A stretch of 64,000 bases of DNA. Origin: Parcubacteria group bacterium (lineage in GTDB: Bacteria; Patescibacteriota; Patescibacteriia; Buchananbacterales; UBA6539). Made by a program: the position numbers and the translations under genes. Under the pieces are notes generated by a model. The model was given only the letters and a program-made list of their open reading frames with translations, did no database searches and had not been told where the DNA came from. Below are positions 42,968 to 46,114 of the stretch, piece after piece (within the stretch, counting starts at the first letter, position 1; every line of letters starts with the position of its first letter). The stretch spans positions 27,951 through 91,950 of the forward strand of contig NYZP01000034.1 in the NCBI GenBank assembly GCA_002687175.1, read 5' to 3'.

Positions 42968-43010
42968 ATCCTTGACTAATTTAATTAGATAGATTATCAT
43001 AATTAAAACT

Positions 43011-43109
43011 ATGACTTCCCAACGAATTAACATTTCGACTGCGCTCAGTGCAGGCATTATTATTAACATTATTATCCAGCCTTTAGGTGGAAGTCTTTCG
43101 ATGAAGTAA
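43011..43109 (+). CDS. Ile-rich attenuator leader peptide (32 aa)
   Basis: MTSQRINISTALSAGIIINIIIQPLGGSLSMK; promoter TTGACT-17-TATCAT at 42972-43000. Confidence 0.8.
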   Translation: MTSQRINISTALSAGIIINIIIQPLGGSLSMK

Positions 43110-43132
43110 ACACTAAGCAATACGATCTGACA

Positions 43133-43157
43133 GACCTTCCACCAGGAAGGTTTTTTT
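43133..43157 (+). terminator. Attenuator terminator (Ile)
   Basis: accttcc acca ggaaggt plus T-tract; competing antiterminator ggtggaagtct (43086-43096) pairs with agaccttccacc. Confidence 0.8.
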
Positions 43158-43260
43158 GATTGTTTTGCTTGGGCAGAACATATACTTAGGAGGAGGGCAC
43201 CTGCTCTTTGTCACAACTTAACCAGAAACTTTGGAAAATTTACAGAAGGAGAAACATAAC

Positions 43261-43890
43261 ATGAGTTCAGGTAGTCTTTTAATGAATGACGTTCCCGACG
43301 GGAGTGTAGCTACTCGTTTTCAAACTGAAGACTATATTAAGGCGATGATCGGTACCATTGATTTTGGTGACGTAACGATTGGACCGGAAATTGTAACAAA
43401 GGTTTTCCACCGTTGTCAGGAATTGGCAACTCAAGGAGTTACCTTTGACGAAGCTCAAGCTTCGTTTATACTACTGGTCTTGGAAGAATTTGGTTTAGAG
43501 TTAGCCCAGTTCAAATGCTTGTCCGGTCAGGTTACAGTATCTTTTGGCGAGGACAGAGAATCGATATGTGACGCAACCATAAAGGTTGATACCGGCGTCG
43601 ATGAGCCAAAGCATGTAGCTTATGAGGATGCTACACCAGTTAGAGCCTTAAACGGTGCTTTGCAGAAAGTTGTTGTTTCTTTAGCTGACGGGATTACCTT
43701 AGGCAATGTTGTTAAGGAACGTATTCCAACTTCTGATGGCGCTCCAGAGGTTTATCGGGCTACTATTACCTTGGAAAATTGTACTGATACGTGGACCTCT
43801 GTTGGCGTTGGACCGAACCTGATTGAGGCCTTTATTAAGGCCTTGCTCGATGGCTATCGCTATGCCGCTTATCGGCACAATTTGCCATAA
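43261..43890 (+). CDS. Stand-alone CimA-type (citramalate synthase) linker and C-terminal regulatory domain, no catalytic barrel
   Basis: ELATQGVTFDEAQASFILL, DATIKV, PVRALNGALQK and WTSVGVGPNLIEAFIKALLDGYRY resemble the CimA C-terminus; AAGGAG SD. Confidence 0.8.
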   Translation: MSSGSLLMNDVPDGSVATRFQTEDYIKAMIGTIDFGDVTIGPEIVTKVFHRCQELATQGVTFDEAQASFILLVLEEFGLELAQFKCLSGQVTVSFGEDRESICDATIKVDTGVDEPKHVAYEDATPVRALNGALQKVVVSLADGITLGNVVKERIPTSDGAPEVYRATITLENCTDTWTSVGVGPNLIEAFIKALLDGYRYAAYRHNLP

Positions 43891-43909
43891 TCCTGGTTAA
43901 AATGCTCAT

Positions 43910-43941
43910 AGCTGGTCACTTTTTAGTGATCAGCTTTTTTT
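43910..43941 (+). terminator. Intrinsic terminator
   Basis: agctggtcact/agtgatcagct plus T-tract. Confidence 0.75.
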
Positions 43942-43957
43942 GTGGAAAAGTAAGATT

Positions 43958-44010
43958 TTCCGCCAGAGGTAGCCTGTCCGTCCTCTGGCGGAGATGCGCC
44001 TATGGCGCAG
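43958..44010. repeat. Intergenic copy of the ccgccagagg/cctctggcgg palindromic element
   Basis: tccgccagagg-12nt-cctctggcgga followed by gatgcgcctatggcgcag. Confidence 0.7.
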
Positions 44011-44085
44011 ACATCCATAAATTAATATAAATTACTAATATAGATGTGGGGTTGACATCATCTGCCAGTCTGTTAACCTAACTAT

Positions 44086-44139
44086 ATGAGATTTATTGCT
44101 CGAACAAACCTACTGGGTTTACTGCTAGCCAACAGCTAG
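44086..44139 (+). CDS. Leu-rich attenuator leader peptide (17 aa, LeuL-like)
   Basis: MRFIARTNLLGLLLANS; codons CTA CTG ggt TTA CTG CTA; promoter TTGACA...TG-TAACCT places the start near the ATG. Confidence 0.8.
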   Translation: MRFIARTNLLGLLLANS

Positions 44140-44180
44140 GTGGTTTGAGTTGTAGATAAAAAATACAAGTAATCAATCAT

Positions 44181-44207
44181 CTAGTTCAAATCTGGGCTAG
44201 TTTTTTT
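44181..44207 (+). terminator. Attenuator terminator (Leu)
   Basis: ctagttca aatc tgggctag plus T7; ggtttgagttgtagat (44142-44157) can pair with atctagttcaaatc. Confidence 0.75.
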
Positions 44208-44255
44208 GTTGTTTGAAATTGAATTGATCTTTTAACAAAAAGAGGAGAATATATT

Positions 44256-44636
44256 ATGGCCAGTATGGAGTCTTGCTGGGAACTAGCTGATGTTAGATTA
44301 TCTACTGTTAGGTGTGGAGAACAAATGGTTTTTGTTAATCTAAGATTTGGTCAGGAAAATCATAATGATACCTCAAATGACAGCTGTCTTTTTTCAGCCG
44401 TGATTAAAGCTATTGCCAGAGCAACAGACATTGAACTATCTTTGATTCAATTTAATGTCCGGCAGGTAAATGATCACGAGGTAGAAGTTCACGCTACAAT
44501 TCGCAGCAATGGACAATTAACTATTGTTACTGGAATTGATAATGATATTATCTCAGCTTTTGCCAAGGTGGTGGTTGCGGCTGTTAACCGTTCTTTAGAG
44601 AAAAATAAGACGCCAGGATTTATACCTGGATGTTAA
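44256..44636 (+). CDS. Stand-alone LeuA-type allosteric (dimerisation) domain
   Basis: WEL..V...V.L..G......AV.KAI.R.T.IEL.L..F.V...NG....G.D.DII.A.AK..V.AVNR pattern; GAGGAG SD. Confidence 0.75.
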   Translation: MASMESCWELADVRLSTVRCGEQMVFVNLRFGQENHNDTSNDSCLFSAVIKAIARATDIELSLIQFNVRQVNDHEVEVHATIRSNGQLTIVTGIDNDIISAFAKVVVAAVNRSLEKNKTPGFIPGC

Positions 44637-44727
44637 ATAGAAGATATTTTTGACCGTGTTCGTATTTATTACAGCCCGGTCTTTTTTTACCCCCCACTTT
44701 TTTAATAAAAGTGTGGGGGTTTATTTG

Positions 44728-44753
44728 ACCACGTCGTTCGCGAACGACGTGGT
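44728..44753. repeat. Perfect 26-bp palindrome abutting a -35 box
   Basis: accacgtcgttcgcgaacgacgtggt; TTGACA at 44753 and TG-TAGAAT at 44775. Confidence 0.75.
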
Positions 44754-44788
44754 TGACAAATTTTTTATATTTGTTAGAATTTAATTTC

Positions 44789-44915
44789 AACGGCGGCCTG
44801 TTGTAGTCGAAAGCTAGTGAGAGAGGTCTCTCCTCCTGGGTTCTAAGAGATCTGATGCTTTCTGAGCGTCTTCTGGAATTACAGACGCTTACCGACAAGA
44901 CTCCAGGCCGCCGTT
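44789..44915 (+). ncRNA. Candidate structured ncRNA of unknown family (about 125 nt)
   Basis: Starts at the predicted TSS; 12-bp terminal helix aacggcggcctg/caggccgccgtt; internal hairpins. Confidence 0.5.
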
Positions 44916-44939
44916 CCTTATTTGTTCTTTATTTTTTTT

Positions 44940-45040
44940 GGACTCTATCCATTAGCTGGCTGGTCGTGAAAGGTGCCTCTGAAATTCTTCACAAGGGGTG
45001 AAGATTATTAAAGAGGTTCACGGAACCCAGGAAAGAGTCC
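44940..45040 (+). ncRNA. Candidate rod-like ncRNA (about 100 nt) directly before the tRNA
   Basis: Nested helices ggactct/agagtcc, ctgg/ccag, cgtgaa/ttcacg, cctct/agagg and tcttcac/gtgaaga. Confidence 0.45.
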
Positions 45041-45041
45041 T

Positions 45042-45111
45042 CGGCGTGTAGCTCAGGAAGAGCGCCTTGCTTGGGGCAAGGAGGTCGTAGGTGAAAATCC
45101 TGCCACGCCAA
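45042..45111 (+). tRNA. Atypical tRNA-Pro(UGG)
   Basis: Cloverleaf: gctc/gagc D-stem with 5-nt loop, ccttg/caagg around CT-TGG-GG, gtagg/cctgc T-stem with TGAAAAT loop, C1-A72 mismatch, no encoded CCA. Confidence 0.75.
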
Positions 45112-45122
45112 CTCAATCTTCC

Positions 45123-45155
45123 GGTCCTAGACAAATTAGTCTAGGACCTTTTTTT
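45123..45155 (+). terminator. Intrinsic terminator of the ncRNA/tRNA unit
   Basis: ggtcctagac/gtctaggacc plus T-tract. Confidence 0.8.
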
Positions 45156-45197
45156 ATTTGACATATTTTTTTCAATGATATAGTCTTTATATATAGT

Positions 45198-45272
45198 ATG
45201 AAAAAAGCAATTTCTGAAAATTTAGCCCATAAGTGGTTTTTCGTCACTTATTTTACTGACCGAACAGGTTAG
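45198..45272 (+). CDS. Aromatic-rich attenuator leader peptide (24 aa)
   Basis: MKKAISENLAHKWFFVTYFTDRTG; promoter TTGACA-17-TAGTCT at 45158-45186. Confidence 0.75.
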   Translation: MKKAISENLAHKWFFVTYFTDRTG

Positions 45273-45322
45273 CTGGCTTTATTTATAGTAATTGTTTAAA
45301 CAAAAACTTAAAAAATAAAGTC

Positions 45323-45349
45323 AACTGACCGACATAAGGCCAGTTTTTT
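45323..45349 (+). terminator. Attenuator terminator (aromatic)
   Basis: aactgacc gacataa ggccagtt plus T-tract; antiterminator 45267-45284 pairs 17/18 with 45313-45330. Confidence 0.75.
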
Positions 45350-45392
45350 GTTTTTTGGGAGTAGCATGGAACCTTATAACAGGGAGGAAAAA

Positions 45393-45866
45393 ATGGAAAC
45401 TCAAGCCGAAGGAGATATTGTGGGGTTCGAAGTCCAACTGGGTAGTGCTGTTTGTAGTGTTTTAACTACACTGCCAGATAAGAATATTACTGACCGGGAG
45501 TTGGTGATCAAGAAGGCCTTACTTTATGTCTCGGTTAATGGGTCACAAAGGGCCAAGGCCAATAAAACTATTCGTCAGTTAGTGGCGGCAACACCAGTTT
45601 GTTACGGCGTACTGCGCAAGAATACGTTTTGGCGAATAGTTTTGGACTATTTGACTGTTGAAGAAGCGGTTCAGGCATATTTGGTACGTTTCCCAAAAAC
45701 CTTGACTGATCGACAACGTCAAAGTATCATTGACTATTTGGTTGACGAAAGAAAGTTTTCATTCGAGTTAGTCAATCAGTGCATGGTTAAGTTTGGCCGC
45801 CGTCGACGAATTGGCTACAAACATAGCTGTACCCGTAAAAGTCATCATGGTTTTGTATCCAACTAG
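45393..45866 (+). CDS. Hypothetical protein under the aromatic attenuator
   Basis: GGGAGG SD before ATG 45393; no recognised motif. Confidence 0.65.
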   Translation: METQAEGDIVGFEVQLGSAVCSVLTTLPDKNITDRELVIKKALLYVSVNGSQRAKANKTIRQLVAATPVCYGVLRKNTFWRIVLDYLTVEEAVQAYLVRFPKTLTDRQRQSIIDYLVDERKFSFELVNQCMVKFGRRRRIGYKHSCTRKSHHGFVSN

Positions 45867-45879
45867 GAGGATAGTTTAT

Positions 45880-46074
45880 ATGAGTGGAACGTGTTTGGTG
45901 ATCAAAAAAGGTCAAGAGGATCTTATTGAGAGAGTGTTATCGGCTGCTTTTCCCGGCCTGGAATTTGAACCAGTTACTAACGATTCGAAGCATATGCTTC
46001 GGGTCAAAGGTGATTCCGACCAAGTCGGAGAAGTTCGTTCTTTGTTTAATGGAGTAGAGCAAGTTGCCTACTAG
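45880..46074 (+). CDS. Stand-alone DAHP synthase ferredoxin-like (Phe/Tyr-binding type) regulatory domain, 64 aa
   Basis: AGGAGG SD; LVIKKG.E..IERV.....GL......LRVKGDSDQV....LFNGVEQV resembles the type I-beta DAHPS N-terminal domain. Confidence 0.6.
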   Translation: MSGTCLVIKKGQEDLIERVLSAAFPGLEFEPVTNDSKHMLRVKGDSDQVGEVRSLFNGVEQVAY

Positions 46075-46082
46075 AAGCTTAT

Positions 46083-46114
46083 GTCCAGAGTGTTTAACAT
46101 TCTGGACTTTTTTT
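46083..46114 (+). terminator. Intrinsic terminator
   Basis: gtccagagtgt/acattctggac plus T-tract. Confidence 0.8.

Follow-up and report, generated by a model that had tools for sequence, protein, structure and literature searches.

The window analyzed here is a stretch of 64,000 nucleotides from the genome of a Parcubacteria group bacterium (Patescibacteriota, order Buchananbacterales; assembly GCA_002687175.1, contig NYZP01000034.1, positions 27,951 to 91,950). Its plus strand carries, flanked by genes for an apolipoprotein N-acyltransferase and an inositol monophosphatase, three units that share one layout: a leader open reading frame (ORF), a hairpin with a T-tract, one or more ORFs led by a Shine-Dalgarno (SD) sequence, and a closing hairpin. 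We predict that the three units are ribosome-stalling transcription attenuators; two of them precede ORFs homologous to the regulatory domains of CimA and LeuA, and the third precedes two small ORFs. The genome (1.12 Mb in 35 contigs) has a completeness score of 100%. Most of the stretch is also covered, without a single base difference, by contigs assembled from four public marine runs, so it is not an assembly artefact.

The Ile unit begins with a promoter-like site (TTGACT-17-TATCAT, 42972..43000) that scores 10/12 in a consensus scan. Its leader ORF (43011..43109) encodes 32 residues, eight of them isoleucine, with the cluster IIINIII on a scaffold homologous to that of leaders in relatives, and in folding simulations the distal part of the same ORF supplies the antiterminator strand GGTGGAAGTCT (43087-43097). 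The attenuator terminator, a hairpin with a T-tract (43132..43158), is supported by the sequence, a terminator scan and the simulation; it is followed by ORF1 (43261..43890, 209 residues) and by a terminator found in the scan (43910..43942). The Leu unit has a leader ORF of 17 residues (44086..44139, cluster LLGLLL), recognized by its codon cluster, folding and alignment, an attenuator terminator with a T-tract (44181..44208; scan and simulation), ORF2 (44256..44636, 126 residues) and a probable closing terminator (44652..44688), which has a short stem, a long loop and seven Ts and was seen by eye, being absent from the scan. In the aromatic unit, a leader ORF of 24 residues (45198..45272, cluster WFFVTYF), with homologous leaders in relatives, precedes a terminator hairpin with a T-tract (45323..45357) that the scan lists on the other strand, then ORF3 (45393..45866, 157 residues), ORF4 (45880..46074, 64 residues) and a terminator found in the scan (46083..46114). 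The putative promoters of the Leu unit (44052..44079) and the aromatic unit (45158..45186) were identified by eye; both start with TTGACA (at 44052 and 45158), followed by a weak second hexamer that matches at 3 of 6 positions. Of the common layout proposed in the original prediction, the leaders, terminators and SD-led ORFs are therefore present in all three units, with a promoter in the consensus scan for the first only.

Cognate codons make up 6 of 7 positions in the Ile cluster, 5 of 6 in the Leu cluster and 5 of 7 in the Trp/Phe/Tyr cluster. We folded each leader up to its T-tract while a ribosome footprint of chosen size (the codon plus 10 bases) was shifted codon by codon. In all three simulations, terminator pairing stays at or below 0.16 until the penultimate cognate codon and reaches 0.8-1.0 beyond the cluster; with the ribosome at the last Ile codon it is already 0.63, and at the last Leu codon 0.86. 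The same procedure was applied to 33 leaders, hand-picked from the leader listing of relatives (30) and the window (3): 27 switch, three fail and three have no T-tract that we could find. As a control, the segment between cluster and stop codon was shuffled, and the terminator remained blocked in just 11 of 180 cases. Both cluster and pairing are conserved in relatives, and the leaders recur across the order, in agreement with the proposal of three attenuators with mutually exclusive terminators and antiterminators. The codon clusters themselves are not equally rare: among 9045 short ORFs genome-wide, an Ile cluster occurs once, a Leu-type cluster 31 times and an aromatic-type cluster 86 times, so the Leu and aromatic leaders rest on switch timing and conservation. 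The window Leu leader aligns to the Val leaders of relatives, not to their Leu leaders, with Leu replacing Val codons, and its -35 element is common to those Val leaders. None of the window leaders matches a leader family in Rfam.

In silico, the leaders resemble classical attenuators of the trpL, leuL, ilvL, pheL and hisL type: a short leader with a cognate cluster, an antiterminator overlapping the leader end, an intrinsic terminator and an amino acid that fits the enzyme family. They differ in what they control, namely single orphan genes or fragments with no working pathway, and in that the leaders of relatives cluster five per cassette.

ORF1 matches the regulatory domain LeuA_dimer (PF08502) with an E value of 1.9e-5, and its sole match in NCBIfam is citramalate synthase (TIGR00977, E 1.5e-16, positions 355-517 of the 526 in the model); it thus comprises the end of the accessory region and the regulatory domain, with no catalytic barrel. 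ORF2 matches LeuA_dimer (E 5.8e-11) as well as six LeuA models (the LeuA family being TIGR00973), and contains the regulatory domain alone, with neither barrel nor accessory domain. Alignments and a tree agree with these assignments: ORF1 groups with the TIGR00977-type CimA rows at a support of 95/83, and ORF2 is placed with the LeuA rows (85/88), as had been proposed for the genes behind the Ile and Leu leaders. Both are far from the whole-protein cut-offs (59.8 versus 450 bits and 34.6 versus 598.7 bits), and by these profiles they are homologs of CimA and LeuA rather than members of those families. Among 142 candidates, the only close homolog of ORF1 was ORF1 itself. A further difference from the full enzymes lies in the GxGP loop, where the inhibitor is bound between the partners of the dimer, in a site to which two chains contribute: at this position ORF1 reads D-A-T-P and ORF2 D-S-C-L. 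Binding of Ile and Leu by the two domains is accordingly doubtful on sequence grounds, as is the idea that a ligand-binding module was kept.

The separation of regulatory from catalytic parts could mean that each domain serves as the regulatory subunit of a catalytic half whose gene lies elsewhere in the genome. Separate regulatory subunits are known, for example IlvH (passages of PMC13381585), and an assembly in 35 contigs might hide a partner. Yet the genome, complete by its score, has no match to HMGL-like or to DAHP_synth_1, and a profile built from the DAHP synthases of relatives finds nothing in its six frames. We regard such split enzymes as very improbable. Nor did we find a third clear LeuA_dimer domain in the genome.

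ORF3 belongs to a small family that corresponds to no known family. Five relatives have a homolog in their aromatic unit, which in four of them lies upstream of DAHP synthase. Its structure model is all-helical (mean predicted local distance difference test score, pLDDT, 82), with no clear fold match. ORF4, which has homologs of 63 residues in G003 and about 62 in G006, is modeled as beta-alpha-beta-beta-alpha, with the last strand unsure. This is a ferredoxin-like class and compatible in topology with the ferredoxin-like domain of type I-beta DAHP synthase (PF18152; Thermotoga maritima 1rzm), and in the operon ORF4 stands in the place of DAHP synthase. ORF4 was originally predicted to be this domain, an assignment that sequence and structure searches do not confirm: it has no Pfam match, PF18152 included, no hidden Markov model (HMM) match to the N-terminal DAHP-synthase domains of relatives and a probability of 4.8 in a profile comparison with the domain, and Foldseek returns no row at E 0.001, 1rzm being weak at rank 29 (E 0.26). 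The comparison of gene orders is more suggestive. In G004, G007 and G014, the ORF3 homolog is followed by DAHP synthase where the window has ORF4; the aromatic unit of G008 consists of a gene for 262 residues, a PDH-PDT fusion and DAHP synthase, and G003 and G006 have homologs of the first two of these genes, then a small ORF and no DAHP synthase. Descent of ORF4 from DAHP synthase is thus unproven, with position as the main argument and the modeled fold class beside it. Behind the aromatic leaders of relatives we also noted a family of 246-262 residues with a faint prephenate dehydratase match (L001:6425-7165, L003:10591-11373, L004:7428-8216, L012:2184-2951), after which comes a PDH-PDT fusion with no ACT match.

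In relatives, the same neighborhood (from ndk to rpsL where contigs extend) encodes full-length CimA and LeuA of 510-610 residues, together with a ProB-like kinase, a prephenate dehydratase or PDH-PDT fusion, and DAHP synthase. The leaders of this cassette come in a fixed sequence: Ile, Val, Leu, Pro and then aromatic. Ile leaders lie upstream of CimA (two subtypes), Leu leaders upstream of LeuA (several subtypes) and Pro leaders upstream of ProB (G013, G014); outside the cassette, HisG follows His-containing leaders in G020, G029 and G022, and ArgB follows an Arg-rich leader in G029; no leader was found upstream of aspartokinases or ArgA. The cassette-type enzymes generally catalyze the feedback-inhibited steps of their pathways. 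Feedback inhibition is established for LeuA (passages of PMC9860122) and for CimA and PheA (passages of PMC13381585).

The enzymes occur largely apart from the pathways they would serve. LeuA_dimer is present in 21 of 41 genomes, DAHP synthase in 18 of 41 and HisG in 12 of 31, and there are no matches to aconitase/LeuC or chorismate synthase (AroC) in the 41, none to AroB or HisD in the 31, a single Iso_dh in the 41, and no ProA in five genomes, three of which have the ProB-like kinase. These counts include the window's own genome and some incomplete assemblies, and closely related genomes do not count as independent cases. The full-length enzymes mostly keep their catalytic motifs. Exceptions are the proteins in the Ile units of G019 and L036, which match just one of the three motif patterns; such full-length CimA-like proteins behind Ile leaders (L008:11428-13047, L036:3256-4911) are possible dead decoys. 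On these comparisons, the window's fragments appear to go back to full-length, feedback-controlled enzymes, encoded in a cassette that is found across the order and was already without the matching pathways. The window is therefore not a case of a lost pathway with its sensor left behind. The original view that the enzymes were lost agrees with the absence of catalytic halves from the genome, but is incomplete in this respect.

Patescibacteria lack most amino-acid pathways and obtain amino acids from hosts. Because each leader would turn its gene on when its amino acid is short, the product should help to obtain that amino acid. The enzymes of relatives have no downstream pathway to serve at home and make sense if they work where the rest of the pathway exists, in a host; likewise, a bare domain with no target at home makes sense if it acts in the host. 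Accordingly, we favor the reading that the cassette encodes starvation-induced proteins that deregulate host amino-acid synthesis, present in the window as ligand-blind decoy subunits rather than sensors, and give it a probability of roughly 0.45. The window bacterium would probably be a host-dependent epibiont. A shortage of Ile, Leu or aromatic amino acids would switch on the matching unit, and the catalysis-less products could be transferred into the host, perhaps via a type IV secretion system (T4SS). There, full-length forms might add first-step capacity, and trimmed forms might pair with the regulatory domain of the host enzyme and blunt its inhibition, freeing host CimA, LeuA and possibly DAHP synthase from end-product control. 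The host would then overproduce the amino acid, and the leader would turn the unit off again.

Bare regulatory domains are not confined to the window. Stand-alone LeuA_dimer-like ORFs behind Ile or Leu leaders number 14 cases, in families f1, f2, f4, f37 and f103 and on one metagenome contig: two each in G000 and G001 (the G001 link to a Leu leader is inferred across a contig break), one each in G005, G010, G020, G024, G022 and L040 and, outside the order, one each in G048, G075, G099 and G330. For three further bare domains (G027, G031, G091) no leader was found; in G031, which is outside the order, CimA, a ProB-like kinase and a loop-intact bare LeuA domain follow one another (L017:1746-4853). 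In family f37, one and the same Leu leader stands before a full LeuA (G123) and before a bare domain (G048, G075, G099). In those lineages LeuC was found in 0 of 5. A tree of 37 rows, with the f37 and G330 rows left out, needs six changes, at least two of them forced. In a phylum-wide sample, the LeuA_dimer domain occurs in 30 of 401 genomes, and a few of the 18 regions inspected resemble ordinary leu operons.

The GxG[PG] loop is present in 20 of 22 full-length rows, as well as in the two solved structures that were aligned, 3f6g and 1sr9, and is lost in 11 of the 14 bare domains. This bears on two readings in which the domains would bind their amino acids. In the first, the bare domains are cell-internal sensors that bind Ile, Leu or aromatics and signal to a partner in their own cell, such as a transporter or a host-detachment program. 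An isolated CimA regulatory domain does bind Ile specifically, according to passages of PMC13381585, and three leader-linked bare domains keep the loop and some are under purifying selection (see below). Yet neither window domain retains the loop, a point in favor of decoys over sensors. Moreover, none of the units shows an output domain or a partner gene that is conserved, a sensor whose synthesis is limited to starvation would duplicate its leader, and this reading leaves unexplained why full enzymes that lack a pathway occupy the same slot. We consider this quite unlikely. In the second, the domains are sponges or carriers: once in the host or at the site of contact, they would bind the amino acid and either lower its free pool, which would relieve feedback by an indirect path, or hand it to an uptake system. 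The genomic logic is that of host deregulation, with no need to fit a host enzyme, and the loop-keeping domains of G020, G024 and L040 would suit it. Besides the general loss of the loop, the affinity of an engineered CimA domain, millimolar in the passages of PMC13381585, would be poor for a stoichiometric sponge, and we judge this improbable.

Pairwise dN/dS ratios (nonsynonymous to synonymous change, Nei-Gojobori type) were obtained for bare domains of lineages other than the window's. The values are 0.36 for G020/G024 (Fisher 4.6e-4), 0.27 for G048/G075 (0.01) and 0.28, near saturation, for G048/G099. For comparison, full CimA gives 0.15, DAHP synthase 0.29 and a pair of neighboring controls 0.11-0.19. 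The bare-domain values indicate purifying selection in two other lineages.

Purifying selection has to be set against late-stage decay, in which ancestral enzymes cross-fed citramalate, isopropylmalate and DAHP to a partner, and the catalytic parts were deleted here, leaving eroding remnants. The long branches and lost loop of the bare domains are consistent with this, as are the missing close homolog of ORF1, the character of the site as a turnover hotspot and the apparently intact catalysis of the full-length enzymes in relatives. It is harder to reconcile with the retention of the identical part in each of the 14 cases, with the dN/dS values of 0.27-0.36, with a Val scaffold recoded to Leu and with window ORFs that retain SD, stop codon and terminator. 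Moreover, when neutral change of 0.5 per base was simulated 500 times, ORF1 never stayed open and ORF2 did so in 7 runs, although some of the actual divergence may be older than the truncation. ProB in the absence of ProA would make an unstable intermediate, which also speaks against cross-feeding. Decay is, in our estimate, unlikely, and is the rival that we rank first. As a class, then, the bare domains are not products of simple random decay, as originally suggested; of the two alternatives offered in its place, sensors or effectors, the loss of the loop argues against the former.

For host deregulation by decoy subunits, a route of delivery may exist. The genome encodes VirB4-like and TrwB-like ATPases, on a contig other than that of the cassette (the search was limited to these two families). 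According to passages of PMC12102498, T4SSs are widespread in Patescibacteria and lack components for conjugation, and one species requires its T4SS to grow as an epibiont; together with the putative effector clusters in PMC12102498 and PMC12592800, they are a possible route into the host, and the passages in question name no substrate of this kind. That a trimmed domain could act as a subunit is consistent with the isolated CimA regulatory domain, which folds and oligomerizes (passages of PMC13381585).

Several observations weigh against host deregulation. Isopropylmalate synthase is a domain-swapped dimer in the passages of PMC9860122, and the entry of a free domain into a formed host enzyme is hard to see. 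Three of the 14 leader-linked bare domains (G020, G024, L040) retain the loop; bare-domain branches are long (1.0-3.5) and their dN/dS lies above that of the controls, which would also fit relaxed selection. In the full-length forms, neither the two catalytic motifs nor the GxGP loop have been lost, so these proteins may remain inhibited. Many leaders control unrelated unknown proteins, and some genes have more of a pathway around them: the Pro leader of G021 precedes a complete set, proB and a proC-proA fusion, and by eye HisI-, ArgE- and ArgG-like genes adjoin HisG or ArgA, and leu-operon-like neighbors occur in a few Patescibacteria (G059, G169, G198). The cassette is real, conserved and unusual; its reading as host deregulation is bold. 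Bolder again, and held more tentatively, is the possibility of an epibiont leader battery that reads the missing amino acid and releases the matching feedback enzyme or ligand-blind domain into the host, with the orphans (ORF3 and the Val-unit families) as further, unrelated feedback-breakers and each leader labeling its host target.

The closest parallels that we found are fungal. Ustilago Cmu1 dimerizes with host chorismate mutase, and with Cmu1 and Sclerotinia SsCM1 alike, a parasite's deregulated or weak copy of a pathway enzyme associates with its host counterpart and diverts flux (passages of PMC12607891). In the same passages these are whole enzymes that target plant defense and have no amino-acid-sensing switch, whereas the window would represent a bacterium acting on a microbe, for nutrition, with demand control per amino acid and bare domains. 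Our literature search, limited to passages of papers, found no published description of the arrangement; the parts (attenuators, LeuA_dimer) are already known. If the reading is true, these proteins would form a class of bacterium-to-microbe effectors, small, suited to expression in laboratory strains and with a likely target and inducing signal readable from leader codons, for which a culture-free test is possible. It would account for the scattered leuA, cimA, aroF, hisG and proB genes that are often taken for leftover biosynthesis, make host enzyme types predictable from the exchange of CimA and LeuA subtypes in the cassette, and offer trans-acting feedback-relief parts for amino-acid production strains.

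Other observations concern the further slots of the cassette. The Val slot of relatives (L004:10944-11731, L008:10172-11172, L040:3666-4161, L001:2404-3055) holds two recurring unknown families, either about 200 residues plus 60-130 residues or pairs of about 100 residues; the proteins scanned have no match in Pfam or NCBIfam and are candidate binders of the host acetolactate synthase small subunit. The first gene after many Leu leaders encodes a protein of 53-65 residues that starts with a hydrophobic segment and contains pairs of Cys (L002:8314-8475, L003:8203-8370, L004:10333-10512, L007:4850-5047, L011:6766-6942), possibly a membrane partner. In L073-L077, L079 and L084, judged by eye, a small protein resembling TrpR/YerC-type repressors precedes HisG, often with a HisI-like gene, in an order where no HisD was found. 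The leader pattern also appears in records labeled Candidatus Buchananbacteria and Patescibacteria group, and in two labeled Gammaproteobacteria (L028, L029), where the labels may be wrong.

In several genomes, a tRNA-like sequence, and no protein gene, comes immediately after the Pro leader (L001:5662-6000, L002:10122-10400, L003:10054-10330, L008:7800-8058), which suggests a Pro-codon attenuator acting on a tRNA gene. The window has tRNA-Pro(TGG) (45042..45112, plus strand) at the cassette place where relatives have this tRNA-like gene after the Pro leader. Upstream of it, at 44753-44920, a strong promoter-like site (TTGACA-16-TAGAAT with TG) precedes a GC-rich closed stem of about 125 nucleotides that has no match in Rfam and is possibly an orphan small RNA; the folding z score of 44785-45040 is -3.8. 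The promoter-like site is overlapped by a long, near-perfect palindrome (44725-44756), which may be a repeated element because short pieces of other contigs match it.

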